From Minisyncoccota bacterium (GTDB taxonomy: Bacteria; Patescibacteriota; Minisyncoccia; 2-02-FULL-40-12; GWA2-44-9), in assembly GCA_030583765.1 (NCBI GenBank), contig CP129474.1, positions 521,348 through 585,347 of the forward strand: a DNA stretch of 64,000 nt, given 5' to 3'. Under the pieces are notes generated by a model. The model saw nothing but the letters and a program-made list of their open reading frames with translations, made no database searches and was not told where the DNA came from. The first letter of the stretch is position 1, and each line of letters opens with the position of its first letter. Below are positions 7,686-51,851 of this stretch, piece by piece. A program made the translations under genes and the position numbers.

Positions 7686-7713
7686 TTGACTTTATATACA
7701 AAGGTAGTATAAT
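7686..7713 (+). promoter_or_regulatory. Cassette 2 promoter: TTGACT-16bp-TATAAT
   Basis: -35 at 7686-7691 and -10 at 7708-7713. The RBS CAGGAGGTGGCAC is followed by ATG 7735. Confidence 0.6.
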
Positions 7714-7734
7714 ATACGCTCAGGAGGTGGCACT

Positions 7735-8328: not shown

Positions 8329-8338
8329 CGGCCCACTT

Positions 8339-8388
8339 GCGGGGGTGTGTGCATACGGTGCACATACCCCCGCTTTTTCTTTGTTTTT
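8339..8388 (+). terminator. Intrinsic terminator of cassette 2
   Basis: GCGGGGGTGTGTGCA...TGCACATACCCCCGC hairpin followed by TTTTTCTTTGTTTTT. Confidence 0.6.
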
Positions 8389-8406
8389 CCATATAGGCAT
8401 ACACTA

Positions 8407-8436
8407 TTGACCTCTGGAAGGCTCTTCTGATATACT
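8407..8436 (+). promoter_or_regulatory. Putative 23S-5S rRNA operon promoter (TTGACC-18-TATACT) with leader hairpins downstream
   Basis: A near-consensus promoter lies about 290 bp upstream of the 23S 5' end. Leader stem-loops at about 8505-8535 and 8680-8720 look like processing stems. Confidence 0.4.
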
Positions 8437-8722
8437 CCCTAGTACCCAAAGATGATTACCTACCAGACAAGCGAAACCCTCAGCGGCTGACAGACCGTGT
8501 TCGCACGTCTGAAAAAGCCGCCTCAAGGCGGTTTCTGTGTCTCTAGGAGCATCACGCGGGTCGCTTCGCCCTAAGGGGCGAGACGAACCTCGCTCCATGA
8601 TCCTTTGGTATCATGAGCGGGCAGTACGTTGACAACGTGGAACGGGAGCTGAACGAAAGTTCAGCTTTGTATTGTTCGCTTTATAAGAGACCTAGGACCT
8701 CGAGTCCTAGGTGGTACTTTGT

Positions 8723-11815
<3,093 letters not shown>

Positions 11816-11873
11816 GGTCTCTTATAAAACAAACAACACAAAACCGTTCCACGTAGCGTAAAAACGCTAGAAA

Positions 11874-11985
11874 CTTGGCAGCTATACTGTAGGTGTCCCA
11901 CCTGATCCCATTCCGAACTCAGAAGTGAAATCCTGCAAGGCCCATGATAGTCGGACTCTTCCGGCGAAAGTAGGTAGCTGCCAGA
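11874..11985 (+). rRNA. rrf: 5S ribosomal RNA
   Basis: CTTGGCAGC...CCCACCTGATCCCATTCCGAACTCAGAAGTGAAA...GCTGCCAG; canonical 5S helices. Confidence 0.8.
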
Positions 11986-12024
11986 TTTCTGGCGTTTTTA
12001 TGTTGGTGAGGTATACTTGCAGAT

Positions 12025-34907: not shown

Positions 34908-34958
34908 TCATGAAATTCGTGTCGAGATAGAAGCGCAACTGCGCCTCATACAAATCTC

Positions 34959-35045
34959 TGGTGCCCTCGACAGGACTTGAACCTGTACGATCGTGAGATC
35001 ACTAGCTCCTGAAGCTAGCGCGTCTGCCAATTCCGCCACGAGGGC
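34959..35045 (-). tRNA. tRNA-Leu (anticodon CAG)
   Basis: The reverse complement is GCCCTCGTGGCGGAATTGGCAGACGCGCTAGCTTCAGGAGCTAG...CAGGTTCAAGTCCTGTCGAGGGCACCA. It has a long variable arm. The loop TTCAGGA gives anticodon CAG. CCA is encoded. Confidence 0.85.
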
Positions 35046-35175
35046 AAAGAACGAGAGAAGAACGGTTTGACCAGTCTAGCTGATGTCCGCCGTTTCTGCC
35101 AATGGGATAACCCCAAAGCACAAGAGTACACGAATAGTACCTAGTATTATAGCAAAACTACGGGAAAAAGCAAGA

Positions 35176-36954
35176 CTATTTCAAGCTGCGCGTTGTGTGA
35201 ATATACCACTCACGAATGCCAGCGAATCGTTCAGCTGGGGTGCCGATAACGTTCAGTGAGGCTCCTAAAATGCGACTATCCATGGCATAGGTATACTTCG
35301 CATTGTATAGGAAGATAGCCGGCAAATCCTGCACTACAATTTGTTGGAAATCGTGATAGAGGCTCGCGCGCTCAAGAGGATTAAGCGTGGTGCGGGCTCG
35401 CTCCAAAATGGCGTCCGCAGTCTGGTTGTCATACAGAGCAATATTTGCTCCCGGTTCGCGCTTCTGTGAAGAGTGCCACACGGGGAATGGATCTGGATCG
35501 AGGCTCATCACTACGCCAAACAGGAGCATGTCATACGCTCGATCCTTTATAGCCTGCTGGAGCTGCACAAACGATAACGAAGAGACCGTGAGCTCAATAC
35601 CAGCGTTGCGCCACTGTGTTGCGATGCGCTGTGCTACCTCAGAAAGCTCTGGTTGTGTGCTTGTGGTAAGAGTGAGCGCAAGGCGTGTGCCGCGCTTGGT
35701 AAATATACCGTCGTTGCCTTGAGCCCAGCCGTCAGCAACCAGCACTGCCTTTGCCTTTTCAGGATCAAATGTTGGGCTGGCGACGTCATCGGCGATTGAG
35801 AGCACGCTTTCTACGAACGGTCGATCTACAGGAGATCCCTTGCCATGGAGCACGTCACGGATGAGCGCATCGCGATCGGTTGCGTGCGAGAGAGCAAGTC
35901 GCACATTTCTGTCCGCGATGAGCGCGTTGCGGCTCTGGTTGAAGAATACGGCGAAGTAGCGAGGGATGTTGGCATCCGTATATGCTATACGGCGAGGTGT
36001 GCCAATCTCTTTTTGAGCTTTTGGAGAAATGCCCGCGATGCTATCGATGTGGCGTCGCTTGAAGGCATCGATGAGCGCATCCTCACTTTGGAAAAATTTC
36101 AGCGTGATACGATCTATAAAAGGACGGCCTGCATGAAAATCTTCAAAGGCGCGAACGGTATACGAAGTGATGCGTCCCACGCTATCTTTTTCAAGCTTCT
36201 CAAAGCGATACGGCCCAGCGCCAACGGGACGCGTATTGAGATCGTGTAATGCAAATGAAGCGGGGCGTATATCCTGCCATATGTGCTTTGGCAAAATACC
36301 AACGGTCAGCGTATTAGGGAACTGCGCGTATGCAGTCTTAAGTTTAAACATCACCGCAAATTCATTCACCTTCTCTACGGTGACGCCTTGCCATGCGATG
36401 CGGAGCGGGCTTCCAAAATCAGGATTTTGGATGGTTTCAATGGTAAAAATGACGTCATCTGCGGTAACGGGCTTGCCGTCATGCCAGAGAGTATCTTCTT
36501 TCAAGTACACGGTATAACTCAAGCCATCGCTGGAAATTTCCGGGAATGTTTTTGCGAGGTCAGGGACGAGGTTGCCTTGGGCGTCGTAGGACAGTAGCCC
36601 AGCGAACAAGAGCGTTTCTAAATCGCGATCTACCTCATTCGCATATGAGAGCACGGGGTTGATGAATCGCGGGTCCCCAAGCACTCCTTCAGTAAAGGAG
36701 CCGCCCGTGTCTGGGGTAACGATGGTTGCAGAGCGCCACAGCGCGACGGGAATGAGGGCAATGCTCGCGATCGCTATGAGTGCCAGAGCGGCGATGCCAT
36801 AGCGCTCACGAAAGGAGAGCACCTTGGGGAGGAGGCGCATTCTTTGTCGCCAGAATAAACGAGCCGTTACCGGATCCTCCTCGCGTTCCGCGGGAGCCCC
36901 AGGAGCAGGCGACGCAGAAAAGAAATCGTCGAGCTGGTGTTCGTTATGTGGCAT
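35176..36954 (-). CDS. ABC transporter substrate-binding protein, family 5 (Opp/Dpp-like)
   Basis: 592 aa with an N-terminal TM/signal anchor and an SBP_bac_5-like sequence. Confidence 0.75.
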   Translation of the reverse strand: MPHNEHQLDDFFSASPAPGAPAEREEDPVTARLFWRQRMRLLPKVLSFRERYGIAALALIAIASIALIPVALWRSATIVTPDTGGSFTEGVLGDPRFINPVLSYANEVDRDLETLLFAGLLSYDAQGNLVPDLAKTFPEISSDGLSYTVYLKEDTLWHDGKPVTADDVIFTIETIQNPDFGSPLRIAWQGVTVEKVNEFAVMFKLKTAYAQFPNTLTVGILPKHIWQDIRPASFALHDLNTRPVGAGPYRFEKLEKDSVGRITSYTVRAFEDFHAGRPFIDRITLKFFQSEDALIDAFKRRHIDSIAGISPKAQKEIGTPRRIAYTDANIPRYFAVFFNQSRNALIADRNVRLALSHATDRDALIRDVLHGKGSPVDRPFVESVLSIADDVASPTFDPEKAKAVLVADGWAQGNDGIFTKRGTRLALTLTTSTQPELSEVAQRIATQWRNAGIELTVSSLSFVQLQQAIKDRAYDMLLFGVVMSLDPDPFPVWHSSQKREPGANIALYDNQTADAILERARTTLNPLERASLYHDFQQIVVQDLPAIFLYNAKYTYAMDSRILGASLNVIGTPAERFAGIREWYIHTTRSLK

Positions 36955-36972
36955 GCGAAAAGCAAAACGCGC

Positions 36973-37191
36973 TTAGCTGAGCGCGATGCGTGCAACCGAA
37001 ATACCTACAAAGAGTACTGCAAGTACGATGGTGGCGATGTAGATTGAACGTTCCGCACCGCGCTTGGTGGCATATTCCATAGCCCCCGCTCCCATAACTG
37101 ATGAGAGTCCGCCTCCACGCTGTTGCATAAGAATGCCTACGACGAGGAGTACAGAAACTGCGATGTGTGCGTAAGAGAGAATGGTTTCCAT
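36973..37191 (-). CDS. secG: Preprotein translocase subunit SecG
   Basis: 72 aa and 2-TM, with HIAVSVLLVVGILMQQRGGGL typical of SecG. Confidence 0.7.
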   Translation of the reverse strand: METILSYAHIAVSVLLVVGILMQQRGGGLSSVMGAGAMEYATKRGAERSIYIATIVLAVLFVGISVARIALS

Positions 37192-37203
37192 AAAGAAAGA
37201 TTA

Positions 37204-37554
37204 TTAGACGGTTCGATCCATGCGGGCAAGTGCCAGATTAACGAGCGAGACCACGAGGGTCGCGCCGATGAGCGACCAGGCTCCTGCGCTTTCGATAGCG
37301 GCAAATTTCCAGTCAACAATACCAAGCAAAAGGGCGTTGATGACGATGCTGAAGAGCCCAAATGTGACAATGATGAGCGGGAATGAAATGAACGTCATGA
37401 TCGGCTTGATAGTTCCGTGTAACACGGCAAGTACTGCGCCTGCGAGGAGGTAAACCTGCGCGCTTGCTACTATAGAAAAGCCCGGAATAAAGAGGGCTGC
37501 CACATAGAGGCCAAGCGCATTTGCTATAACTCGCGCCGCAAAGCGAATGATCAT
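37204..37554 (-). CDS. DUF360-like small membrane protein
   Basis: 116 aa with 4 predicted TM segments. This is a weak family-level guess. Confidence 0.4.
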   Translation of the reverse strand: MIIRFAARVIANALGLYVAALFIPGFSIVASAQVYLLAGAVLAVLHGTIKPIMTFISFPLIIVTFGLFSIVINALLLGIVDWKFAAIESAGAWSLIGATLVVSLVNLALARMDRTV

Positions 37555-37590
37555 AAGCAGTGGCTATCCTAGCATATACCACAGCGTGCT

Positions 37591-38868
37591 TCAACCACGC
37601 TGACCTTTAAGATGGAGACTGCGATAGTACTGGATAGCAAAGCGGTGGGCTTCAGCATCAATGCGGCTTACGAGCGTTTGCACGCTACGTGGGAGTGTCG
37701 GGAGAGGGAGGACGCCCCGTGACGTAGTGAGGTGGCTCCCTATGTGCCGTTCATCTTTTGTAAAAGCGATGACGGGGATGGTAAGCCCGTGTTGTTCGAG
37801 TACGGCTCGTACCGCGTTGTATTGAGCTTTCCCGCCGTCGACAATAATGCAATCGGGGAGTTCCCATACGCTCGTGCCACGTGCGACTCCAGGGCGATGT
37901 GCGAGGCGTCGGGAGAGTACTTCGGTGAGCATCGCGGTGTCATCCGGTTTGCCGCTCGCGTGGATGCGAAACTTACGATAAGCCCCCTTGTGCGGAGAGC
38001 CCTCTTGAAATACAACCATAGACCCCGTTGCATATAACCCTTGCATGTGGGCGATGTCATATCCTTCAATGCGGAGCGGCGCGTGCGGGAGCTTCAGTGT
38101 TTGTTGGAGTTCTGCTACCGCTTCACTATGGACGATTGGTTGTAGGCGTGCGTTGATGTGCGCGTTGGTGAAGACGCGAGCCATGTGGTCAATTGTCTTT
38201 TGGAGCGTGAGCGCTTCCTCGAGCGCGCCACGCTGCGCCGCTTGTTTCATAGTGCGTGTGAGCGAAGATAATACGGACGCGCGCTTTCCGCTCAGGATGC
38301 CTATAATCGCTTGAATGTTGCGACGGTATGGTTTTGTATCAACTCCATCTGTTTCTTTTAAGCAGCATACGCCGAGACATTTTCCGATGTGTGCATTGAG
38401 GCACCGGACATAGTGCTTTTGGGTGCATGTGCAGTAGGGGAACAGAGTGCGCAGAGTGCGCAGAGTGCTTTTGAGTGCCCCTGAATCGGTGAACGGTCCG
38501 AGTGCACCTGCGCTCGTTGGTTGATGAGTGACAATAATGCGAGGGAACGCTTCTTCAGTAGTTTCTACAAAAAGGTACTGCTTGTCATCGCGCATGACGA
38601 TGTTGTAGTGCGGTTTGAGTTTTTTGATAAGGCGCGCCTCTTCAATGAGCGCTTCAATGGGAGACTCGAGCACTTCCCACGTGAGTTTCGTGGCTTGGGC
38701 AACCATGTGTGCAATGCGAGGATCGCCTGCGCGACCATATGCGGAGAGGCGGGATCGCAATTGAGAGGCTTTTCCTATATAGAGCGGTTTTGTGCCGCGC
38801 GAAAAGCGATACACGCCGGGAGATCGTGGGGCGGTGCGGATGATTTGGGTGAGCTGGACAGGGGTCAT
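37591..38868 (-). CDS. uvrC: Excinuclease ABC subunit C (short form lacking C-terminal HhH2)
   Basis: GIY-YIG N-terminus (PGVYRF...LYIGKA), a UVR domain and an RNase-H-like endonuclease domain (EGYDIAHMQG). It is only 425 aa. Confidence 0.8.
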   Translation of the reverse strand: MTPVQLTQIIRTAPRSPGVYRFSRGTKPLYIGKASQLRSRLSAYGRAGDPRIAHMVAQATKLTWEVLESPIEALIEEARLIKKLKPHYNIVMRDDKQYLFVETTEEAFPRIIVTHQPTSAGALGPFTDSGALKSTLRTLRTLFPYCTCTQKHYVRCLNAHIGKCLGVCCLKETDGVDTKPYRRNIQAIIGILSGKRASVLSSLTRTMKQAAQRGALEEALTLQKTIDHMARVFTNAHINARLQPIVHSEAVAELQQTLKLPHAPLRIEGYDIAHMQGLYATGSMVVFQEGSPHKGAYRKFRIHASGKPDDTAMLTEVLSRRLAHRPGVARGTSVWELPDCIIVDGGKAQYNAVRAVLEQHGLTIPVIAFTKDERHIGSHLTTSRGVLPLPTLPRSVQTLVSRIDAEAHRFAIQYYRSLHLKGQRG

Positions 38869-38953
38869 AGGAAGGTGCTTATTATACCGTCTTTTTGGAG
38901 AAAATCAATCAGCGCGATATGGCGGAAATGAGCGAGTGCGGTATGCTGGTGGC

Positions 38954-39925
38954 ATGGCATTTTCGCTCCTCGAAGAAGACATCATCCGTACCGTTGCGTA
39001 TGGGCAAAGCGTTGGATTCCCACTCACGAACATTGGGATTGTGGAGAGAATGCCGCATGGGGTACCTATGGGTGACGTCATGGTAAGTCTCGAGTGTCTC
39101 GTAAGTGTTGGGGCGCTGGTGCGTACTAACGGGCGCTATGGTATCGGCAACGATGCGCGCGCGTGTATTGAGGCATACGCAAACCGTGCTGCGCTTACGC
39201 GCGTGAAATGGTTGCGAGCGCTTCGTACGGTACGCGTGCTCACGTGGGTGCCATGGGTGCGCGCAGTATGGGTGAGCGGTTCGCTTGCGTATGATGCAAG
39301 CGATGTCGATGGCGATACTGATGTGGTATGTCTCGTTGCGCCCGGTCACATATTCTCTGCGCGCCTGTTCGCGCTCGCACTCTCTTCATTATTTGGCGTG
39401 CGCCGCGCCGCGCACGAAGCGCACGCACCTGATAAGCTATGCATGAACCACTGGATAGCAGATGATGGGCGACAGCTTGCCCACCGCAGTGTCTATACCG
39501 CATGGGTCTATGCGCATATGGTTCCCGTATACGGCATGGCGGCGGCGCGAGCGTGGCGAGAGTGTCAGACTTGGATACAAGATTATACAAGGTATCGAGC
39601 CGAGCCCTCATCTTTGCGAGCTCTACGCCCCAGCTCACCTATTATTTTCGGGAAGATGCTGTGCGAGCGCCTCCTTTCTTTTATTGAACCATTCGCAAAA
39701 CGTGTACAGCTCGGGCGCATTCAGCGAGGCGTTGCGGTTGTGGGGCGGGGGAGAATCCAGGCGAACAACCATGCGCTTGAGTTCCACCCACGCTCACAAG
39801 AGCCACTCGTACTTTCTACATATACAGCATTATGCGCATCGGTTGGTGTGATGGCGGCAGCTCAGGATTCGGGGCTTGGGAAGGGGGCGTGTGATGTTCT
39901 TGACATGCCCGCGGCTTCTGCCTAG
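38954..39925 (+). CDS. Hypothetical protein with minimal nucleotidyltransferase (Pol-beta-like) motif
   Basis: GSLAYDASDVDGDTDVV resembles the GS-x9-13-D-x-D motif. The start was trimmed to ATG 38954 to avoid overlap with uvrC. Confidence 0.4.
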   Translation: MAFSLLEEDIIRTVAYGQSVGFPLTNIGIVERMPHGVPMGDVMVSLECLVSVGALVRTNGRYGIGNDARACIEAYANRAALTRVKWLRALRTVRVLTWVPWVRAVWVSGSLAYDASDVDGDTDVVCLVAPGHIFSARLFALALSSLFGVRRAAHEAHAPDKLCMNHWIADDGRQLAHRSVYTAWVYAHMVPVYGMAAARAWRECQTWIQDYTRYRAEPSSLRALRPSSPIIFGKMLCERLLSFIEPFAKRVQLGRIQRGVAVVGRGRIQANNHALEFHPRSQEPLVLSTYTALCASVGVMAAAQDSGLGKGACDVLDMPAASA

Positions 39926-39962
39926 AATGCTCTCGTTAGCACTCTCGTAGTGCAACTGCTAA
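39900..39962 (+). promoter_or_regulatory. groESL promoter (TTGACA-17-TAGAAT) plus CIRCE-like inverted repeat (HrcA operator)
   Basis: TTAGCACTC-N9-AACTGCTAA at 39936-39962, against the consensus TTAGCACTC-N9-GAGTGCTAA. It lies directly downstream of the -10 and upstream of groES. Confidence 0.5.
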
Positions 39963-40029
39963 TTCGGCGGCTGGCGGCATCGTGCGGGGATATCCGCGCA
40001 CCGTACCGCCCGCCGTCGTTTCTGCGGCA

Positions 40030-40320
40030 ATGCTAAAACCATTATCTGATCATGTTGTGATTGAGCCGCTTAAAGAAGAAATAAAGAAGGGCGGCATCAT
40101 TCTGCCGGACACACTGAAAAAGGAGCGCCCCGAGCGCGGCAAGGTGGTTGCCGTGGGGCCGGGCAAGATGACTGAATCAGGGACGCGTCTTCCCATGGAT
40201 GTAAAGAAAGGTGATATCGTGATTTTCACGAAATATGGTCCCAACGAAATGAAGGTCGACGAAAAAGAGTATCTTATCGCTCGCGCAGACGACATTCTCG
40301 CGATCGTGGAGAGTAAGTAA
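40030..40320 (+). CDS. groES: Co-chaperonin GroES
   Basis: 96 aa from ATG 40030, beginning MLKPLSDHVVIEP... Confidence 0.9.
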   Translation: MLKPLSDHVVIEPLKEEIKKGGIILPDTLKKERPERGKVVAVGPGKMTESGTRLPMDVKKGDIVIFTKYGPNEMKVDEKEYLIARADDILAIVESK

Positions 40321-40325
40321 TTTAG

Positions 40326-41960
<1,635 letters not shown>

Positions 41961-42080
41961 GCTGCACGATACATGTACACACAGCGGGCCATACGGCCCG
42001 CTGTGTGTTTACTTGCGTTGTGGCGTGCGGTTGCTATACTTTGAGCGCATAACGCGCTTGGTGACAGAGCGTATATATTC

Positions 42081-42626
42081 ATGATGTGGCTTATTATTAT
42101 CCTTGCGGTTGTCGCGCTGTGGTTTGCGCTTTCGTATAACGGGTTTGTGACGCTTCGTAACCGTGTGAAAGAGGCGTGGTCAGATATCGATGTGCAGCTC
42201 AAGCGTCGCTACGACCTCATTCCTAATCTCGTAGAGACGGTGAAGGGTTACGCGGCGCACGAGCAGGAGACATTCAATCGCGTCATTCAGGCTCGCTCGC
42301 AAGCGATGCAAGCGCAGAGCGTTGCGGAACATGGTGCCGCAGAGAACCAGCTCACGGGCGCCCTGAAGTCATTGTTTGCGCTTTCTGAAGCATATCCGCA
42401 ACTACGCGCGGTTGAGTCGTTTACCAAGCTGCAAGACGAGCTCACTGATACCGAGGATAAAATCCAAGCCGCTCGCCGCTTCTATAACTCAACGGTCATG
42501 TCGCTAAATACGAAGGTTGAACAATTCCCTTCAAATATTATTGCGAACCTCTTTAGCTTCAAGAAAGAAGAGTTCTTCGAGATCGAGGACGCAGCACAGC
42601 GCGAAACCGTGAAGGTGCAGTTCTAA
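42081..42626 (+). CDS. LemA family protein
   Basis: 181 aa with an N-terminal TM helix and a conserved LemA core (...RRYDLIPNLVETVKGYAAHE...). Confidence 0.85.
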   Translation: MMWLIIILAVVALWFALSYNGFVTLRNRVKEAWSDIDVQLKRRYDLIPNLVETVKGYAAHEQETFNRVIQARSQAMQAQSVAEHGAAENQLTGALKSLFALSEAYPQLRAVESFTKLQDELTDTEDKIQAARRFYNSTVMSLNTKVEQFPSNIIANLFSFKKEEFFEIEDAAQRETVKVQF

Positions 42627-42644
42627 CATTGTTTCCTCTGCCAT

Positions 42645-43562
42645 ATGACGCAGACACTCTACGAGCATCGTGATGCAAATATTCGCACGACATGGGCGCT
42701 CATGACCGGCTTTCTTGTGTTTGTTATTGGAATCGGCTTTTTGTTTAGCCAGGCGTTCCAAGCACCCGAAATTCTCTACATCGCCGTGCTCTTTAGCATG
42801 GTGAGCAACATCGTTGCGTTCTGGTTTTCAGATCGTATCGCACTGAGCATGTCAGGGGCTCGCCCAGTTTCGCGCGAAGAAAATGTGCGCTTGCACCGTA
42901 TGGTGGAGAACATTGCCATCACGGCTGGGTTGCCGATGCCGCGGCTCTACATTATCCCTGGAGCGCAGATCAACGCTTTTGCTACGGGGCGAAACCCACA
43001 AAAGGCTGCAGTCGCGGTGACGCGAGGTGCGTTGGAAAAGCTTGACGATAACGAACTTGAAGGGGTCCTTGCGCACGAACTCTCTCACATTGGGAATCGA
43101 GACATGCTTGTGGGGACGGTTGCCGTGGTGCTCGCGGGAGTCATTTCGATCCTCGCGGACATTGGCCTTCGCGCAGGACTCCACGGCCGTTCTTCTGATA
43201 GCAATAGCAAACAAGGTGGTGCGGCGCTCCTCATCATTGCGCTCATTGCTGCCATTCTTGCGCCGATTGCCGCAACACTCATCCGCTTAGCTGTTTCACG
43301 CAAGCGAGAGTATCTCGCTGATGCATCGGGCGCGCTTCTTACGCGCTACCCGGAAGGACTTGCAAGCGCATTAGAAAAAATTGGCGCTGACAGTGCGCCA
43401 ATGCCGAACGCCCATAACGCAACGGCACATCTTTTTCTCGCAAACCCATTTAAAGGCAAGGATGCGCTTTCGTGGTTTACAAAACTCTTTATGACACATC
43501 CTCCTGTCGCTGACCGCGTTCGCGCACTGAGAGGAATGGAGCAGGGCCGCGATGCTCCTTGA
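42645..43562 (+). CDS. htpX: Zinc metalloprotease HtpX (M48)
   Basis: HELSHIGNRD zinc motif and 4 TM helices. Confidence 0.85.
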   Translation: MTQTLYEHRDANIRTTWALMTGFLVFVIGIGFLFSQAFQAPEILYIAVLFSMVSNIVAFWFSDRIALSMSGARPVSREENVRLHRMVENIAITAGLPMPRLYIIPGAQINAFATGRNPQKAAVAVTRGALEKLDDNELEGVLAHELSHIGNRDMLVGTVAVVLAGVISILADIGLRAGLHGRSSDSNSKQGGAALLIIALIAAILAPIAATLIRLAVSRKREYLADASGALLTRYPEGLASALEKIGADSAPMPNAHNATAHLFLANPFKGKDALSWFTKLFMTHPPVADRVRALRGMEQGRDAP

Positions 43563-43587
43563 AGATTGGCATTTTCACTGGTAGAAT
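43559..43587 (+). promoter_or_regulatory. Cassette 7 promoter: TTGAAG-17bp-TAGAAT
   Basis: The -35 overlaps the htpX stop (43560-62). RBS AGGAGG is at 43608-13 and ATG at 43620. Confidence 0.5.
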
Positions 43588-43619
43588 CCGCGTAGCTCTT
43601 GTGGGGCAGGAGGCTTGCC

Positions 43620-43880
43620 ATGATGGGACGCAGATCGCTCCTGCGGATTGCATATCATCTCGTGCATCCGCATGTGAGTGAAGAGGAAATGCCCCACGAA
43701 GAGTGGGACATGGCAGTAGCCATCGCGCAAGATCGGCGTGATCGTCGGTGGCCGCTCAACGAACGCACTGACGCGCTCTGGGCTCCGGTGCGGGATGCGA
43801 TTCTCAACGTTCCGCGTCCCGACCACGTTTCCGAAATGACGTACCGCCTCTTCCATGAAGTGGTTCGTGACATCGAGTAG
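43620..43880 (+). CDS. Hypothetical small protein (cassette 7)
   Basis: 86 aa beginning MMGRRSLLRIAYHLVHPHVSEEEMPHEEWDM... It is GC-rich. No motif was recognised. Confidence 0.45.
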   Translation: MMGRRSLLRIAYHLVHPHVSEEEMPHEEWDMAVAIAQDRRDRRWPLNERTDALWAPVRDAILNVPRPDHVSEMTYRLFHEVVRDIE

Positions 43881-43924
43881 TTCTCCTGCGCGCTGACAGA
43901 CTTATTCTGCGAGCGCGCTTCCTT

Positions 43925-44008
43925 GGAGGGTTGGCCGAGTGGTTTAAGGCGCACGCTTGGAAAGCGTGTGGGCGCAAGCCCTCACAGGTTCGAATCCTGT
44001 ACCCTCCG
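43925..44008 (+). tRNA. tRNA-Ser (anticodon GGA)
   Basis: GGAGGGTTGGCCGAGTGGTTTAAGGCGCACGCTTGGAAAGCGTG...GGTTCGAATCCTGTACCCTCCG. It has a long variable arm. The loop TTGGAAA gives anticodon GGA. CCA is not encoded. Confidence 0.85.
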
Positions 44009-44180
44009 CATATGTACATCAGTATGCCGTTTGGCGTACTGATGTACATGGGTATATGTATGGTGCGGGATTCGAATGCCGGAGCGATGTGTTGCCAGCT
44101 GGCAACACCGCGAGGCGGTGCCTAGCCCGAGTCGAGCGACGGCGAGACGAAAGGCGAAGGAGAATCCTGTACCCTCCGCA
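43992..44180 (+). repeat. 19-bp direct repeat (GAATCCTGTACCCTCCGCA) = tRNA-Ser 3' end, copies at 43992-44010 and 44162-44180, flanking 151 bp of palindromic DNA
   Basis: Exact duplication seen in sequence. The intervening segment contains TGTACATCAGTA-N12-TACTGATGTACA and a TTGCCAGCTGGCAA palindrome. Confidence 0.8.
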
Positions 44181-44183
44181 CAT

Positions 44184-44741
44184 ATGGCAGATTCTTTTTT
44201 CGATAAACCATTTGCGATCACTGACGTTGAAACAACGGGCCTTGATGTGCGTCGTCATGAAATCATCGAAATCGGTCTTGTAGTCGTCGACCAGAAAACA
44301 TTTAAAGTGCTCGACGAACTTGATCTCAAGGTCCAGCCAGCGCATATTGAAACCGCAGAGGCGGGTGCGCTAAAGGTAAACGGTTATGTGCCAGAGCAGT
44401 GGACGAATGCCGTGCCCCTTGCCGATGCTATGAAACAATATAGCGCGAAAACGCGCGATGCAATTTTTTGCGCATGGAATATCACTTTTGACTGGCAGTT
44501 TATTGAAGAAGCCTTCCGTTCTACTGGAGTGCGTGATCTACTCGATTATCATCGCATTGATATTCCAAGTATCGCATGGGAAAAAATGCGCCATAAAAAC
44601 AGTGTAAAATTTCGACTGAGTAGCCTTGCGGAAGAGCTTGGTATCCCGCCAGAGCCAGAAGTTCACCGCGCTATTAATGGCGCACGCCTCGCCGCGGACG
44701 TGTTCCGCAAGCTTCTGATCCCGCAGGACTCTCTGCTTTGA
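44184..44741 (+). CDS. DEDD-family 3'-5' exonuclease (DnaQ/epsilon-like)
   Basis: Exo I motif FAITDVETTGLD. ATG 44184 lies immediately after the second copy of the tRNA-derived repeat. Confidence 0.8.
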   Translation: MADSFFDKPFAITDVETTGLDVRRHEIIEIGLVVVDQKTFKVLDELDLKVQPAHIETAEAGALKVNGYVPEQWTNAVPLADAMKQYSAKTRDAIFCAWNITFDWQFIEEAFRSTGVRDLLDYHRIDIPSIAWEKMRHKNSVKFRLSSLAEELGIPPEPEVHRAINGARLAADVFRKLLIPQDSLL

Positions 44742-44775
44742 CGCGCTTGAAGGGATCATTCATACTATACACACT

Positions 44776-45423
44776 ATGGCTGACTCAGATATCAAAAAAG
44801 ATGATGCGGGCGAACAGACTGAGCGCGTACTTCCCGAAGCCGAACTTACCAATCCAGTTGTGCCCGAAGCTGTTGAAGAGGATAAGACACAAGAATATCA
44901 GGTTGGCGGATTTGAGCATGATTCCGAGAGCACTATCAACGTTCCCAGTGTTGAGAAATTTCATGACGGAGAGATCGTAGAAATTACGGATCCAGAGATT
45001 CTCGCTACAGGTGACAACGATGGTCAGTGGCGTGTCATTGGGTATGAGCGTGACGCTCGCGGTATTCCCGTGCTTTCTGAAGATCCAAGCGAAAGTGATG
45101 CTGAAAAAAAGAAAAAGTTCGTTGTACTTATCGAAGAAGTGGTCGGGGGAAGAACGACAAAAGTATTTGAAACCGACATTAAGCGCATCGGCGAAGGCTC
45201 TGTTTTTGAGGACATTGTTTCTTTGCCAGAAAAGATGGAGGGTAGAGAAGTTATCATCAAAAATATTCCTTGGCGTATTGTGAAAGTTGCGGGAGAGGCA
45301 CAAGGAGGAAAGATAGGAGAGGGGGTTTATATCGTCTTACGCAACGATCAGCTCGGCGTTGAAATGCAGCCCATCTCACTTGAAAAACTTGCCGCGATTA
45401 CCGAAGAAGTTGTGCCCAAGTAA
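44776..45423 (+). CDS. Hypothetical acidic protein
   Basis: 215 aa, E/D-rich, with lower GC than neighbours. No motif was recognised. Confidence 0.5.
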   Translation: MADSDIKKDDAGEQTERVLPEAELTNPVVPEAVEEDKTQEYQVGGFEHDSESTINVPSVEKFHDGEIVEITDPEILATGDNDGQWRVIGYERDARGIPVLSEDPSESDAEKKKKFVVLIEEVVGGRTTKVFETDIKRIGEGSVFEDIVSLPEKMEGREVIIKNIPWRIVKVAGEAQGGKIGEGVYIVLRNDQLGVEMQPISLEKLAAITEEVVPK

Positions 45424-45476
45424 TGAGATTGCTTTTGCTTTATTTCGTGGTACACTATATCTAACCCAGTGTCACC

Positions 45477-45516
45477 AAGGAGGCGAAGCCGTTCGCACTC
45501 CTTTTCTGCGTCTTTG
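45477..45516 (+). terminator. Intrinsic terminator
   Basis: AAGGAG-GCGAAGCCGTTCGC-A-CTCCTT compound hairpin followed by TTCTGCGTCTTTGG. Confidence 0.45.
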
Positions 45517-45542
45517 GCGCTCTGGGTGGGAGGGAATGCCCA

Positions 45543-47324
45543 ATGCCAGACCATGTTGCCGAAATTAAATCACGACTCGACATTGTCGACGTGATTACTG
45601 GATATATCCAGATTCAGCGCTCTGGCGTCAATTTCAAAGCGCGTTGTCCGTTTCACAACGAAAAGACCCCATCATTTTATATTTCTCCCGAGCGCCAATC
45701 ATGGCACTGCTTCGGGTGTTCAAAAGGGGGCGACATGTTTTCGTTTGTGCAGGATATCGAGGGAGTGGAATTTCCCGAAGCGCTCCGCATGCTTGCGCAG
45801 AAGGCGGGCGTTACGCTCGAGTATACACAGCATAAATTACATTCCGAGAAGACGCGCCTCTTAGATATTCACGAGCGCGCCACAAAGTTCTTTGAAGCAC
45901 AACTCTGGAATGGAAATGCGGGCGCTCGTGCGCTTGCATATCTCCGTGACCGCGGGCTTACTGACGATACCATCCGTACGTTTCGCATCGGGTACGCGCC
46001 AAACGACTGGCATGCACTCTCGACCTATCTCACTTCATGTGGGTATACGCGTCAGGAGATTATCGCAAGTGGCGTGGCCGTACCAAAAGACGGTCGCTCC
46101 TATGATCGTTTTCGGGGGCGTATTATGTTCCCGATTGCTGATGTGAATGGTCGAGTTATTGCATTTACTGCACGCGTGCTCCCAGGCACTGATGACGTCG
46201 GTGCAAAATACATCAATACGCCGCAGACGGCTCTCTATGACAAGGGCTCCGTGCTCTTTGGCCTTGATAAGGCGCGCCTGGCTATCCGTCACGAAGGTTC
46301 ATGTGTGCTGGTAGAGGGGAACATGGACGTGATCATGTCGCACCAAGCTGGTGCTATGAACACGGTTGCAACTTCCGGCACTGCGCTGACTCCACAGCAA
46401 CTCAAGCTCATTCACCGCTACACGCAGACTATCGATTTCTGCTTCGATGCAGATCAGGCGGGCGAGCAGGCTTTACGTCGTGGTATTGGACTTGCTCTCG
46501 CGCAAGAGTTCACTGTCCGCGCCCTTCGTTTGAGTGGCGAGCACATGAAAGACCCCGCGGATTACGTGCGGGAACATGGCAATGAAGCGTGGCTGGCTAT
46601 CGCAAAGGATGCGCAGCCGATCATGGATTTCTACATTGCCCGTGCAGAGGCGACGTTACCGCTCGGAAGCGCTGACGGTAAAAAACAAGCACTCTCTTTG
46701 CTCGGCCCGATGATTCGTCGTATGACGAGTCGCGTGGAGCAAGATCACTGGACGAAGCGCGTTGCGCAACTGGTTCGTAGTGATGAAGCTGCGGTGCGCG
46801 CTGACCTTGCCACTATTCGAGATGATCTTGAAGAGTATGCGCGCCCTGAGGTCCCCACTGTTCCTGCGGCAGCTCCGGCAACGCTTCGCGGCAGTGCGCT
46901 TGATGATGCACTACTCACGTTTGCCTTTGTGCATCCTGCGGTGGTGGCGGCCGAGGAACCGATGCTTACGAAAGCAACCATTGATCCTGTACTGCGCGAC
47001 GCGCTCCTTGCTATCGCGCGTAGTACACCGGAATCACTGCGTGCGCCGGAAGCATTTACGCTCATTGATCCAGAGTCTCGTTTCTCTCTCGATGCGCTGT
47101 ACATGCGCGCGCATGAGGTGTGGAGTGGCGTGAGTGAACGGGAGCTCTCATTCTTCTTCCGCACTATGCTTGCTCGTGCACATACCGAACTTGTCCGATC
47201 TCAGCTTCGCGATCTTGAATCCGCAATCCGTGATGCCGAGGCGCGCAAGGACGTCCAGGAGGTAACACTTCTCGCCGGCCGTGCCGCAACGCTCACGCAG
47301 CAACTTGCTTTGTTTTCCGTTTAA
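45543..47324 (+). CDS. dnaG: DNA primase
   Basis: CHC2 zinc finger ([11 protein letters not shown]...WHCFGC) and a Toprim domain. Confidence 0.9.
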
Positions 47325-47332
47325 TTTTTTGT

Positions 47333-48559
47333 ATGCCAACACCAAAAAAGAAAAAGAAGGTTACCGTGTCGCGCCGTGCGTCCGCGAAGTCTCGCGCACG
47401 AAAACCCGCGCGTGGAGTATCTGCTCGTCGCGTGGTGAAGAAAAAGAAGAGCGTCGCACGCACTCCTCGTAAGAAGCCAGAGGTCATGAGCGAGAGCGCA
47501 ACACTTGCGCTCATTGAGCGCGGCAAGACGCGTGGCTTTGTCACGCAAGCAGAGATTTTGAGCGCCTTCCCCACTATTGAACAAGACATTATTGGACTTG
47601 AAGCGCTCTATGAGCGACTTGAGGGAGAAAATATCACCGTCATTGAATCGGTAAGTGTCTTTGAAGAAACGGCAGCAAAAGAATACGAACAGAAAAAGAA
47701 GATTGAAGATGAGTTTAGTGAAGGCTCATCTTCTGATTCAGTGCAGATGTATCTACGCGAGATTGGCAAATACCCACTTCTTAAGGGCGAGGAAGAGATA
47801 GAGCTTGCCAAGCGCATTGAACGTAACGATGAATCGGCACGCCAGAAGCTCGCACTCTCAAACCTTCGTCTCGTCGTTTCTATCGCAAAGAAATACGTGG
47901 GCCGCTCCGCAAACCTCTCACTTCTAGACCTCATTCAAGAAGGGAACATCGGCCTCTTTAAAGCGGTGGAGAAATTTGATTTCCGCAAAGGGTTTAAATT
48001 CTCTACGTATGCGACATGGTGGATCCGCCAAGCGATCACCCGCGCGCTTGCAGATCAGGCGCGTACTATTCGTATCCCTGTGCACATGGTGGAAACCATC
48101 AACAAATATCAGCAGGTGGTGCGCCGACTGGTGCAAGAACTTGGCCGTGATCCACTGCCAGAAGAAGTTGCTGCAGAAATGGACATGGACGTAGATAAAG
48201 TGCGTCACATTATCAAAATCTCCCAAGACACCATCTCACTGGAAACGCCTGTGGGTGATGGTAAAGATGAAGATAGCCACTTAGAGGACTTCATCCCAGA
48301 TGAGAATGCGCTCGGGCCAGATGTATCTGCGGGGCGTAAGATCCTCAAGAAGTATATTGATGAGATTATCGGGGATCTCTCACAGCGTGAGCAAAAGATT
48401 CTCGACATGCGTTTTGGTCTCACGGACGGCGTCACCCACACCTTGGAAGAGGTGGGGAAGGTGTTTAATGTGACGCGTGAACGCATTCGTCAGATTGAAG
48501 CAAAGGCACTGGAAAAGATCCGTCAGCATGAGAATGTTGAGCGTCTGAAGGGGTACTAG
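47333..48559 (+). CDS. rpoD: RNA polymerase sigma factor RpoD with K/R-rich N-terminal extension
   Basis: Regions 1.2-4 are present (e.g. ...[13 protein letters not shown]...). The first about 60 aa are a lysine/arginine-rich low-complexity stretch. Confidence 0.9.
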
Positions 48560-48641
48560 GTTGCTTTTTGGGGCTATCCTCAATATACTTGGTTGCGATA
48601 GGGTTCTCGGGCATAGGGTTTTGTGGTATACTACAGTGTAT

Positions 48642-48974
48642 ATGCCAGATGTGAGAACCTATCGCGATCGAGCTGAATATCTCAAAAAAGCCGTTGCCGC
48701 TCGAAGGCGCAAGCTTCGAGCGCTCATCGTGGCATATAGGGGTGGCAAGTGCGTGTTTTGTGGGTATAAGCGATCGATCTGGGCGCTTGATCTTCATCAC
48801 GTAGTCGCGCACCAGAAAGAGTTCGGGCTTTCAGCTCGAGGGCTCACGCGATCTTTGGAAAAGATCAAGGCGGAAGCCGATAAATGTATTCTGGTGTGTG
48901 CAAATTGTCACCGAGAAATACACGCAAAGGTAAGGAAACTTCCAAGCACTTATACAAAAAATATTCCGCGGTAG
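48642..48974 (+). CDS. HNH endonuclease family protein
   Basis: 110 aa with CVFCGY...LDLHHV...CANCHREIH (Cys/His zinc and HNH motif). An extended -10 TGGTATACT lies upstream. The stop overlaps the tRNA-Asn 5' end. Confidence 0.6.
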   Translation: MPDVRTYRDRAEYLKKAVAARRRKLRALIVAYRGGKCVFCGYKRSIWALDLHHVVAHQKEFGLSARGLTRSLEKIKAEADKCILVCANCHREIHAKVRKLPSTYTKNIPR

Positions 48975-49244
48975 CTCAATGGTAGAGCGTCTCGCTGTGA
49001 GATAAACGCAGCTTTGCGTCGAAAGGCGCACTGAAACTTTCTGGGATAACGGTGAAGCCCCTTCGTTTTTTTACGAGAGGTAATACCGTGGGAACCCCGC
49101 CTTGGCGGGGGCGCCGTAGAGACTAGATACCAGAACGCCTGTGTCGCATGCGCGATATGGCGAAGATATAGTCCACGCCGGTATGAAAATACCGGAATTC
49201 GTGTAACGAGAGGGTTGTAGGTTCGAGTCCTACCCGCGGAGCCA
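48965..49244 (+). tRNA. tRNA-Asn (anticodon GUU) interrupted by a 205-nt group I intron (exons 48965-48998 and 49204-49244)
   Basis: Exon 1 is TCCGCGG-TA-GCTC-AATGGTA-GAGC-G-TCTCG-CTGT. Exon 2 is TAA-CGAGA-GGGTT-GTAGG-TTCGAGT-CCTAC-CCGCGGA-G-CCA. The spliced loop is CTGTTAA, giving anticodon GUU. Confidence 0.7.
48999..49203 (+). ncRNA. Group I self-splicing intron within tRNA-Asn anticodon loop
   Basis: P1 forms between exon GCUGU and intron GCAGC (49008-12), with a U.G pair at the splice site. The intron ends in G. P7 elements AGACTAG (about 49118-24) and AAGATATAGTCC (49163-74) are conserved. Confidence 0.7.
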
Positions 49245-49248
49245 AATC

Positions 49249-49283
49249 AAAACACCGCATCTTCTGCGGTGTTTTGATTTAAT
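49249..49283 (+). terminator. Intrinsic terminator after tRNA-Asn
   Basis: AAAACACCGCA-TCTTC-TGCGGTGTTTT followed by GATTTAAT. Confidence 0.5.
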
Positions 49284-49341
49284 CCCCTGGTGGACGTTAG
49301 AACTTAAAAATGATTAAATTGAATAAATAGTAAGTAGTCTC

Positions 49342-50082
49342 ATGGCGTACAATATGAGTTTAGAGCAAATACCAAATCAAGCACCTAAGCAGGAAATAAA
49401 AGTTCAACCTAAAATAGAAGTTGAACCAAATTTTGATGGTTTCGTTCCAGATGAATTTAAAAACGACCCCCTAAAATATTTTGAAGAGAAGGGCACTAAC
49501 ATAAAGCCTGGAGAAACAAAATATGATGAAACTGGTCGGGTCCGCGAAGATCCAACCGCTGTAAAAGATTTACCAGTTTGGAAGAATAAAGAAGGAGTTG
49601 AGCTACATACAGTTGGAAAAAGAGTGAACAAAGAGAAGGGCAAGATTGGTGAGATTAGGGATCCGTTTTATGAATATAAAGTTATGGAAATTATTCAAGA
49701 ATTAGGTTTGCCATGTCCTAGGCCAGTTGCAAGGGTAGAACAAGGAGGCAATAACCTTATCGTGATGGAACGAGTTCATGGTATCCGTTGGCCAGATAAA
49801 GATAGTCTACATCTTAATGAGAAAGGATATTCTGCTGAAGATATTCAGGGCTTGATCAGCCAGGCAGAGGTCATGGTAAGGGAATTGCATAGAAAATTCG
49901 AAGACGCTGGTATTTCAAGAGATTGGAAATTAAAAGATATGCTTTTTGATATTGACATAGAAAATAAGAAAATTAATTCCATTGTTCCTACAGATTGGGA
50001 AAGAACCACAATAAACCAAGAAAAATTGGCACAGGCCAGAGCATTGAAGCGACAAACTAAATTAGATACCGAAGGACCCTAA
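49342..50082 (+). CDS. Hypothetical protein in AT-rich islet, possible atypical (RIO/Kdo-like) kinase fold
   Basis: 246 aa, K/E-rich. LIVMERVHG...RDWKLKDMLFDID loosely resembles the hinge and catalytic-loop regions of small atypical kinases. This is weak. Confidence 0.35.
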   Translation: MAYNMSLEQIPNQAPKQEIKVQPKIEVEPNFDGFVPDEFKNDPLKYFEEKGTNIKPGETKYDETGRVREDPTAVKDLPVWKNKEGVELHTVGKRVNKEKGKIGEIRDPFYEYKVMEIIQELGLPCPRPVARVEQGGNNLIVMERVHGIRWPDKDSLHLNEKGYSAEDIQGLISQAEVMVRELHRKFEDAGISRDWKLKDMLFDIDIENKKINSIVPTDWERTTINQEKLAQARALKRQTKLDTEGP

Positions 50083-50186
50083 ATCCGGGACATGGATATA
50101 TCCATTATGCTTTTGCAAAATAGTTCTAACGTTGTTCACGGTTCGGAGCAAGGAATAGAAAAATAAGCTATTATAAACGATAGCCT

Positions 50187-50531
50187 ATGCTGTCCCCCAG
50201 AATCCAATTCGTTGTTCGATTTATTATCGCTGGGTTTTTGTTTCTTGCTATAACAACTTCACTGCTAGGGTCTACCGGTGTGCGAGGGTTTCCAAAGTAT
50301 CCAGACTCTCTGTTAAGAACTGGCGTCGATTCACCATTTGCCTGGAAGCGCACGGTAGCTACGGTGATTCTGCCAATCAAAATTGTTCTTATAGGCCCGC
50401 TCTCTCTGGAGTCTGTCGATCTTTTAAAAGATGATCCGCCACCTCCCTTTATTGCGATATATCTTATCTGCTACTGGACGATTCTTGCCTCAGGCATTTA
50501 TGCTGTGTCTCATAGCATAAAACAGAGCTAG
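50187..50531 (+). CDS. Hypothetical membrane protein in AT-rich islet
   Basis: 114 aa with 3 hydrophobic segments. Confidence 0.35.
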   Translation: MLSPRIQFVVRFIIAGFLFLAITTSLLGSTGVRGFPKYPDSLLRTGVDSPFAWKRTVATVILPIKIVLIGPLSLESVDLLKDDPPPPFIAIYLICYWTILASGIYAVSHSIKQS

Positions 50532-50541
50532 CATAATCGCA

Positions 50542-50799
50542 TTGGAAATTACGAGAAAAAATATCGCAACCGGCGTGGCGCATAAGGTGCCCGAAGATCT
50601 CCGGGCCGCTCTCTTAGTGTCTGAAGCTGTGCAGGCTGCTTGGAATAGCATTACTCCACTTGCTCGCAACGAGTGGATTTGCTGGGTTATTTCAGTAAAA
50701 AAATCGGAGACGCGACGTGACCACATCAGGCGCACATGTGAGGACCTTGCGAAGGGAAAGCGGCGGCCATGCTGTTGGGCAGGGTGCCCACATCGATAA
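50542..50799 (+). CDS. YdeI/OmpD-associated family-like small protein
   Basis: 85 aa. ...NEWICWVISVKKSETRRDHIRRTCEDLAKGKRRPC resembles the YdeI_OmpD C-terminal motif. Confidence 0.45.
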   Translation: MEITRKNIATGVAHKVPEDLRAALLVSEAVQAAWNSITPLARNEWICWVISVKKSETRRDHIRRTCEDLAKGKRRPCCWAGCPHR

Positions 50800-50856
50800 G
50801 CCCCCCCACGGCATTTCTCTAGGCATTTTTATAAAAATACGGTATTCTTGATTTCT

Positions 50857-50976
50857 ATGCCAAAACGACATGGAGGATTGGGTAAGAGCCGCGTGAAAAA
50901 CAAGCCACGCTCGCGCAAAACTGCAAAGCGCTTGGCGAAGAAGCACGCACTTCTTGCCGCACGAAAGGCGAAGTAA
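50857..50976 (+). CDS. Small basic ORF (39 aa) with its own terminator
   Basis: MPKRHGGLGKSRVKNKPRSRKTAKRLAKKHALLAARKAK. It is followed by the CCGCGCACCGCGCGG hairpin and CTTTTGTGTG. It is absent from the ORF track because it is under 60 aa. Confidence 0.3.
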   Translation: MPKRHGGLGKSRVKNKPRSRKTAKRLAKKHALLAARKAK

Positions 50977-51056
50977 GATTTTGAGTCCGCACACTGGCCG
51001 CGCACCGCGCGGCTTTTGTGTGCGCATGAGTTGTTTGATGGTATACTAAAATCATC

Positions 51057-51548
51057 ATGTTACGCTCACACTCTTTTCTAAGACTTGTTATCGCTATCGG
51101 TGCTTCGCAGCTCGCGGGTATCCTGGGCTCGTTCTTTACTATGAGCGCCATACCGGAATGGTACCGGTATCTTCTCAAGCCCGCCATTGCCCCGCCAAAT
51201 TGGGTGTTCGGTCTCGTGTGGACCACCCTATTCATTTTGATGGGTGTTGCGGCATGGCTTGTGTGGGAACGGGGAGCGCGTCGTCGTGACGTGCGTATAG
51301 CCCTCGGCCTTTTTCTTATCCAGCTTGGCCTGAATACGCTCTGGTCGGTTGTATTCTTTGGGCTTCAAAATCCCGGGGCTGCTTTCGTGGAAATCCTCAT
51401 ACTCATCATTGCTATTCTCGCAACAATGCGGGCTTTTTATCCCATTTCCCGTCTTGCTGCGCTGTTGCTGGCGCCCTATATCGCATGGGTGAGCTTTGCC
51501 GCCTATATTACTTGGAGCATTTATCAACTGAACACCCCGTTGACATAA
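51057..51548 (+). CDS. tspO: TspO/MBR family tryptophan-rich sensory protein
   Basis: 163 aa with 5 TM helices and W/P-rich conserved motifs (...PNWVFGLVWTTLF...). Confidence 0.85.
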   Translation: MLRSHSFLRLVIAIGASQLAGILGSFFTMSAIPEWYRYLLKPAIAPPNWVFGLVWTTLFILMGVAAWLVWERGARRRDVRIALGLFLIQLGLNTLWSVVFFGLQNPGAAFVEILILIIAILATMRAFYPISRLAALLLAPYIAWVSFAAYITWSIYQLNTPLT

Positions 51549-51566
51549 ATACCCCCCGGGGGGTAT
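51549..51566 (+). promoter_or_regulatory. Perfect 18-bp palindrome ATACCCCCC|GGGGGGTAT immediately upstream of csoR (putative CsoR operator)
   Basis: It is seen directly after the tspO stop and 10 bp before the csoR ATG. GGGGTATG is repeated again at 51567-51576. Confidence 0.5.
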
Positions 51567-51575
51567 GCTTGGGGT

Positions 51576-51851
51576 ATGAAATACATGGACGAAAGTGCTA
51601 AGGCTCGCGTAGTGCGGCGCCTTAAGCTTTTGGAAGGGCAGGTGCGAGGGTTGCAAAAAATGATCGTGCAGGACACTTACTGCATCGATGTTATTACTCA
51701 GACCTCTGCAGTAAAGCAGGGGCTTTCGAATGTTGAAGATCTGCTACTTGAGAACCATCTTGACCATTGCGTACATCATCAGATGCAATCAGGCCAGGCA
51801 AAGAAGGCAAAAGAGGAAATTATAAAAGTATATAAACTGAAAAGAAAATAA
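51576..51851 (+). CDS. csoR: CsoR/RcnR-family metal-sensing transcriptional repressor
   Basis: 91 aa with ...[37 protein letters not shown]...HLDHCV... (the W-X-Y-Z Cys/His ligands). It precedes copA. Confidence 0.8.

Follow-up and report, generated by a model that had tools for sequence, protein, structure and literature searches.

Between htpX and the tRNA-Ser gene downstream of it, a 64,000-nucleotide (nt) stretch from the genome of an uncultured Candidatus Paceibacterota (Paceibacteria), hereafter the window, carries an open reading frame (ORF) of 86 codons, which raises the question of whether this frame, here called ORF86, is a gene and, if so, whose promoter drives it. Based on comparison with two congeners, combined with codon statistics, homology searches and structure prediction, we regard it as on balance probable that ORF86 is a real species-specific orphan gene, expressed from a promoter borrowed from tRNA-Ser. 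An earlier note on this DNA had instead taken promoter, ribosome binding site, ORF and hairpin as a cassette inserted as one unit. The elements on which the argument rests are the following.

43559..43587, + strand: sigma-70-type promoter TTGAAG-17-TAGAAT with a TG-extended -10 box, 9/12 in the consensus scan
43590..43922, + strand: species-specific segment of 333 nt between the tRNA promoter and the tRNA, delimited by blastn breakpoints and alignment
43608..43613, + strand: Shine-Dalgarno (SD) sequence AGGAGG, 6 nt before the first ATG, read from the sequence
43620..43880, + strand: ORF86, 86 amino acids (aa) and a TAG stop, with an ATGATG start (43620-43625), from the ORF list and GenBank identity
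43888..43918, + strand: GC-rich imperfect hairpin with 11/13 pairs, found as an inverted repeat
43925..44009, + strand: tRNA-Ser(GGA), called by ARAGORN and by the Rfam tRNA model at 60.4 bits

The features that the earlier note had described are all there, among them the promoter overlapping the htpX stop, whose TGA (43560-43562) lies inside the -35 hexamer, the AGGAGG with its 6-nt spacing ahead of a double ATG, the 86-aa frame between htpX and tRNA-Ser, and the raised GC content (~0.59-0.61 in the ORF86 region compared to a window mean of 0.52 with a standard deviation, sd, of 0.045, hence ~+1.7 sd). The hairpin before the tRNA is likewise present, but with -19.1 kcal/mol and z = -4.6 it is not the weak one that had been reported, and it runs to 43918, past the position 43900 at which the element had been closed. 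The predicted product, a protein of 10.4 kDa with a pI of 5.8 and no cysteine, is identical to the GenBank hypothetical protein QY311_03075, encoded on a 615-kb contig.

Whose promoter this is can be answered from two congeners. L085, an 81-kb groundwater contig found by HtpX protein search (HtpX 93% identical), and L091, a third congener found by a DNA-pattern scan, are roughly as distant from the window as from each other (79-82%), and both display the identical gene order without ORF86, meaning that the DNA of ORF86 is extra and that the wording 'inserted between htpX and tRNA-Ser' in the earlier note is borne out. Collinear blastn matches between the window and both congeners end at 43589 and restart at 43923; relative to L085 the collinear blocks span 34683-43589 and 44162-49247 at 78-82% nucleotide identity, and the only indels flank the tRNA. 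The promoter lies on the shared side of the left breakpoint, reading TTGAAG-17-TAGAAT in L085 and TTGAAG-17-TATAAT in L091, in each case across the htpX stop, and the species-specific DNA begins 2 nt after the -10 box, at 43590. The 333-nt segment stands in place of a congener leader of ~10 nt, ATCAGTTTTA; in the congeners TA(G/T)AATCC is followed by ATCAGTTTTAT and the tRNA 5' end, then by an interrupting unit of ~95 nt, and finally by tRNA-Ser itself. Since hexamers and 17-nt spacing are conserved where ORF86 is missing, the promoter is resident and belongs to the tRNA-Ser unit, and the earlier assignment of it to an inserted cassette does not stand.

The same neighbourhood recurs well beyond the genus. 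Among the 80 htpX loci of Paceibacteria and relatives that we compared from the matches listed (L005-L084), with HtpX 47-67% identical in these more distant relatives, htpX is followed on the same strand by tRNA-Ser(GGA) in 33, at distances from 1 to 2337 nt, and where the gap is short, -10-like boxes are found close to the tRNA (read by eye). The htpX-tRNA-Ser linkage is long-lived, while the interval is freely remodelled. From the alignments, gain of the ORF86 segment in the lineage of the window would be the simplest history; a single loss may be the alternative, given three equidistant congeners.

Whether ORF86 is coding rests primarily on the composition of its codons. Using a table derived from long genes of the window, the frame obtains a log-likelihood of 0.165 per codon, which places it at the 11th percentile of true-gene windows and higher than 96% of shadow ORFs; it is also the sole frame of the six with a positive score. 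Chance ORFs of 80 aa or longer, of which 6000 shuffles of the spacer yielded 1974, match this score in a single case (0.05%), and none reaches the difference in GC content between first and second codon positions (GC1-GC2), which is 0.337 in ORF86 as compared to 0.024±0.075 in the null. The start is unusual, too, as just 9 of the 2358 ATGs of the window (0.4%) have AGGAGG 4-12 nt upstream; native genes mostly lack an SD, and an SD-led start is also seen in a bona fide NUDIX gene of the window. A single-sequence AlphaFold model yields four helices with a predicted local distance difference test (pLDDT) value of 74.3 and a predicted template modelling (pTM) score of 0.60, compared to 52.0 and 0.27 for an overlapping antisense ORF of 93 aa that served as control. 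This antisense frame and another of 99 aa were rejected as the true gene, having negative codon scores, no SD and a poor fold prediction. Finally, contigs from four sequencing runs, including one with another archive prefix (DRR), show 100% identity over ORF86 and its flanks.

The claim of an orphan is upheld by all sequence and structure searches, and by the conservation check in relatives, in which ORF86 is absent from L085, L091 and the 80 more distant relatives listed. ORF86 gives no matches in Pfam, PHROGs, NCBIfam, PADLOC or the PDB sequences; a word-index search of 5.8 billion clusters returns only the ORF86 protein itself; tblastn against phage genomes reaches a best E of 0.5, nothing is found in IMG/VR contigs, and Foldseek comparisons of the model to PDB and BFVD all remain at E > 1. 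HMMER on 1.84 billion representatives gives P0002 as its sole match (E = 2.3e-4), a 909-aa tandem-repeat helix-turn-helix protein that we rejected as a homologue, as the weak similarity (22% identity) is summed over six repeats and represents a repeat artefact. Within the window there is no paralogue or repeat of ORF86, and no copy of the 333-nt segment exists elsewhere in the window or in the 87 loci compared; a 14-nt match between ORF86 (43787-43800) and the 3' trailer of the tRNA is marginal (p = 0.03). The slot between htpX and tRNA-Ser holds 36 ORFs from 26 loci, falling into 27 unrelated clusters (DUF3137, Ham1, HhH-GPD, GGDEF, Mur ligase and others); none is similar to ORF86, and a remnant of a gene that fills the same slot in relatives was rejected on this basis. 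ORF86 was most likely acquired horizontally, from a donor not yet sampled, since an ORF freshly arisen from non-coding DNA would not be expected to show such strong codon periodicity.

Several observations weigh against a functional gene at this position, and they also bear on other readings of the segment. The length of ORF86 by itself is compatible with chance, as 19.7% of 2000 dinucleotide shuffles of the 362-nt spacer contain an ORF of 86 aa or more when any start codon is allowed, and 11.8% do so with ATG only. The remark in the earlier note that the frame alone could pass as noise hence applies to length (12-20% of shuffles), but not to the codon-position pattern, which is far beyond chance. 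A chance ORF in a GC-rich spacer without coding history would fit these lengths, the three of six frames that are largely open across the segment, and the lack of homologues; with codon score and GC1-GC2 reached by at most 0.05% of chance ORFs, a rare SD context and a fold prediction better than that of the control, we consider it very improbable.

The composition of the protein is atypical as well, with 14% arginine and no lysine, the latter amounting to 4.8% of the proteome, and only ~6% of 86-aa windows of native proteins are free of lysine. Furthermore, as no homologue is detected at any sensitivity, evolutionary evidence of selection is lacking, and as all population copies are identical, dN/dS is not computable. 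The odd composition, the lack of homologues and the absence from both congeners and the 80 more distant relatives listed would all be expected of a coding-derived passenger without function, i.e. a scrap of foreign or rearranged DNA that bears the imprint of a gene, is not usefully expressed and is being lost, and so would the instability of the locus, where each species has its own inserts next to the same tRNA and assemblies disagree. However, start, SD and stop are intact without disruption of the frame, the sequence is identical in four samples and the predicted fold is clearly better than that of the antisense control. Compact genomes (~0.6 Mb) are in addition expected to shed useless DNA fast, which counts against a passenger, and we deem this origin of the segment possible, if unlikely.

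A further concern is the folding of the RNA. The whole leader folds better than its shuffles (z = -2.68, 0/100 shuffles as good), and its minimum-energy structure has the SD paired with UUCUCCUG, just 3' of the stop codon. This pairing with UUCUCCUG, together with the leader z-score, keeps alive a non-coding or regulatory reading at lower probability, in which the 333 nt would act as an RNA that modulates maturation of the tRNA or read-through into it, the ORF being incidental. In agreement, the terminal hairpin has the z-score of -4.6 given above, the position is occupied in the congeners by another structured leader module, which is highly conserved (z ~ -2.8 each), and a covarying structured trailer follows the tRNA. 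A strong three-base periodicity with native-like codon usage in one frame is nevertheless unexpected of a non-coding RNA, as is a perfect SD at optimal spacing to a double ATG; there is no Rfam match, and with one sequence only, covariation has no second sequence to draw on. We therefore judge a structured leader distinctly unlikely.

Two points concern the surroundings of the frame. The strong hairpin might terminate transcription, in which case the tRNA would need another promoter, the sole candidate being a weak TTCTCC-16-TATTCT (7/12) seen by eye between ORF86 and the tRNA; in a scan of 42000-45000, no other + strand promoter of at least 9/12 is found between 43588 and 43925, and the next one lies at 44738. 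In addition, four independent short-read Logan assemblies of the same species (L001-L004), exact through ORF86, diverge from the window at 43943. After tRNA position 18 (43942) they proceed into GCCCATTCCG, which is the start of the leader insert of the congeners, and end there, while every Logan contig approaching from the opposite side begins at 44138. Between 43943 and 44138 the structure is accordingly polymorphic, or collapsed in one assembly, which may be that of the window, where the sequence goes straight into the tRNA; ORF86 itself is solid.

Returning to the favoured reading of ORF86 as a gene under a borrowed promoter, we propose the following sequence of events, in which transcription start, co-transcription with the tRNA, processing, translation and cellular role are inferred. 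In one Paceibacteria species, the tRNA-Ser transcription unit would have received, within its 5' leader, ~333 nt of DNA that brought along no promoter, so that ORF86 would be transcribed from the pre-existing tRNA-Ser promoter. Transcription presumably starts ~7 nt past the -10 box, near A43594, as judged from the position of that box, giving a 26-nt leader that carries AGGAGG, and ORF86 would then be translated via its own SD into a small soluble four-helix protein. The transcript may end leakily at the hairpin (43888-43918) or continue into tRNA-Ser; if it reads through, cleavage by RNase P at the tRNA 5' end would free an ORF86 mRNA with the hairpin at its 3' end. The hairpin, which is followed by UUCCUU and no U tract and is not called by the terminator scan, likely either stabilises the ORF86 mRNA at its 3' end or acts as a leaky terminator. 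ORF86 is not a serine-codon attenuator, because it contains only 3 serines in 86 residues (3.5% compared to 5.8% in the proteome).

The proposal of a self-contained mobile cassette deserves separate consideration, as the grammar to which it appealed is real at other loci of the window. The module consists of TTGAC(T/A), a 16-17-nt spacer, a near-consensus -10 box, 8-12 nt, AGGAGGT(GG), 2-4 nt and ATG or GTG, and in its tight form of TTGACT-17-TATAAT, AGGAGGTGG, an ORF rich in GC at third codon positions (GC3) and a true terminator. The ORFs concerned start at these positions.

5750, 7735, 27004 and 56782, + strand: cassette ORF starts, read from the sequence
32349, + strand: cassette ORF start of looser form
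31181, - strand: cassette ORF start of a NUDIX gene, read from the sequence

The GC3 of these cassette ORFs is 0.68-0.96 compared to 0.53 in native genes, most lack a Pfam family, one being NUDIX, and a GC-rich hairpin with a T run follows 5 of 6 (read by eye). With ORF86 included, 6 of 10 AGGAGG-led ORFs have a promoter-like site 19-32 nt upstream, as compared to 3 of 35 native genes, and the whole window contains only 61 such sites. Native genes mostly have no SD and often a -10-like box 7-20 nt before the ATG, and look leaderless, an organisation known as a trait at genome level (PMC6028130, PMC3160421). Cassette and native genes look like two expression classes, or like native genes beside a horizontally acquired set of high GC. 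We note that the start at 7735 lies in the top GC stretch of the window (7701-8500, 0.75 in 300-nt windows), which is located just upstream of the 23S rRNA and covered by three overlapping long ORFs; the SD-led ORF (7735-8328) encodes 197 aa with a GC3 of 0.94 and a basic tail rich in lysine and alanine.

ORF86 resembles these cassettes in the order of its parts, the perfect AGGAGG core and the raised GC, and the existence of a non-random set of modules in the same window speaks for a common nature. It departs from them in having a resident promoter, a longer leader and a more native-like codon usage. The SD context is AGGAGGCTT, located 20 nt after the -10 box rather than 8-12 nt and without the TGG extension, GC3 is 0.63 and hence below the cassette range, and the hairpin is followed by TTCCTT instead of a T run. 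As relatives without ORF86 conserve the promoter, and the species-specific DNA does not begin until past its -10 box, insertion as a unit is largely refuted as far as the promoter is concerned. Signs of mobility are likewise missing: no direct repeats of a tRNA segment flank the ORF86 segment, the left junction being no more similar to the tRNA 5' end than expected (p = 0.43), no repeat copy occurs in the window, and there is no recombinase in or beside the insert, as the 333 nt hold only ORF86, with genes for HtpX (M48) and an RNase_T-type exonuclease as neighbours. The same comparison, in which the alignment was no better than shuffles, led us to reject the idea that the region of SD and start codon derives from a decayed tRNA 5' end; repeats of tRNA segments do, however, bound a separate element on the 3' side. 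A mobile cassette thus has little to recommend it as an account of ORF86, which matches the cassette grammar only loosely, and the grammar, while a real property of other loci in the window, should not be extended to ORF86 without comparative data.

The tRNA-Ser gene is accompanied by structured RNA modules, which differ between the species and which we list with the orthologous tRNA genes.

44010-44183 (model match 44033-44180), + strand: conserved structured trailer element directly after tRNA-Ser(GGA), from alignment and covariation
L091:2266-2413, L052:5773-5923, L008:5023-5178, L032:6215-6349 and L025:6198-6361: trailer element in relatives
L021:8630-8761 and L029:8189-8323, - strand: trailer element in relatives
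L091:2052-2157 and L085:8943-9063: congener leader module of ~95 nt between promoter and tRNA
L085:9064-9148 and L091:2158-2242: tRNA-Ser(TGA) of the congeners, orthologous to tRNA-Ser(GGA) at 43925-44009 of the window

The trailer begins with a long perfect hairpin and a stretch complementary to the T-arm and the acceptor 3' strand of the tRNA, continues with two internal helices that carry the conserved motifs GGATTCGAAnGCCGnAGCGATGT and ACCGCGAGnnGGTGCCYAG, and ends with 19 nt that repeat the tRNA 3' end exactly (43992-44010, again at 44162-44180). Across the alignment, 92% of cells are paired compared to 71.5% when shuffled, compensatory changes occur in 26 of 38 pairs, and the covariation score is 0.457 compared to 0.174 (0/500 shuffles), with slid controls at 0.10 or below. 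The element is absent from the congener L085. It belongs to no Rfam family, and we consider it a candidate new RNA family, the nearest analogue of which we take to be a functional tRNA 3' external transcribed spacer. A phage attP origin was rejected, as the motifs are absent from viral contigs: the sole exact match in the viral set falls within the first codons of what by eye looks like an ORF, and the covariance model finds no match there.

The leader module of the congeners is composed of a repeat of the leader and the first 19 nt of the tRNA, in L091 a perfect direct repeat of 30 nt, followed by a GC-rich insert of 65 nt. The insert folds into two hairpins (z ~ -2.8) and is ~94% identical between L085 and L091 by our own count, compared to ~82% for its flanks. 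The tRNA itself differs, too. Acceptor and D arms are identical between Ser(GGA) and Ser(TGA), whereas anticodon arm and T stem differ, and the downstream 3'-end repeat of L091 keeps a T stem of GGA type (CCTGT), which suggests that Ser(TGA) has taken the place of a Ser(GGA) gene in that congener lineage. The structured modules on either side of tRNA-Ser are better candidates for new biology than ORF86, which is ordinary in kind, being one more species-specific hypothetical protein of a reduced, symbiont-type genome.

Taken together, these modules invite a wider picture, which we put forward tentatively and with more doubt than conviction: the junction of htpX and tRNA-Ser may act as a small hot spot of recombination, at which congeneric Paceibacteria exchange modules, i.e. 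a conserved structured 5' leader with repeats of the tRNA 5' end at its borders, a covarying 3' trailer and, in one species, an orphan gene. ORF86 would then have been recently captured or newly established, hijacking the tRNA promoter and being made from an mRNA-tRNA hybrid precursor.

The wider locus has the gene order GroES, GroEL, LemA (42081-42626), HtpX/M48 peptidase (42645-43562), ORF86, tRNA-Ser(GGA) and RNase_T-type exonuclease (from 44184); an exact-sequence look-up of this exonuclease 3' of the tRNA returned no record. Further along, synteny with both congeners is lost after 49247 and returns only in fragments (window ~49250-51800, L085:14222 onward, L091:6930-13500), and judging from the alignments ~49250-51800 is a second variable region of the genus. 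Elsewhere in the window, the 23S rRNA match at 8718-11986 comprises 3092 nt compared to a model of 2925 positions and may hold insertions; the 5S rRNA is next to it, and no 16S rRNA is found anywhere within the window.

Among known systems, insertions by integrases and other islets adjacent to tRNA genes share with ORF86 the position beside a tRNA, in a locus where tRNA-fragment repeats mark other rearrangements: in the window 19 nt of the tRNA 3' end are repeated, and in the congeners 20-30 nt of the 5' end. They differ in that the ORF86 segment, of 333 nt only, resides on the 5' side between promoter and tRNA, with neither flanking repeat nor integrase. Mixed mRNA-tRNA units of E. coli offer another parallel. 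In secG-leuU, thrU-tyrU-glyT-thrT-tufB and tyrT-tpr, which are conserved and experimentally shown, as in the arrangement proposed for ORF86 and tRNA-Ser, one promoter serves an ORF and a tRNA that RNase P would separate. For ORF86, however, co-transcription is deduced from the position of the promoter only, and the gene appears as a recent intruder into a very short tRNA leader, with a strong hairpin between ORF86 and the tRNA. A further likeness is to the ORFan genes of Patescibacteria and the Candidate Phyla Radiation, which like ORF86 are short, lack a detectable homologue, are confined to one species and occupy a variable spot in an otherwise syntenic region. In contrast to these, the coding claim for ORF86 derives from explicit statistics and not from a gene-caller, and its position between a tRNA and the promoter of that tRNA is unusual. 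The locus hence offers a clean natural example in which a gene lies between a tRNA and the promoter of that tRNA while two congeners display the 'empty' state, and it could serve the study of how new genes gain expression from the promoters of RNA genes.

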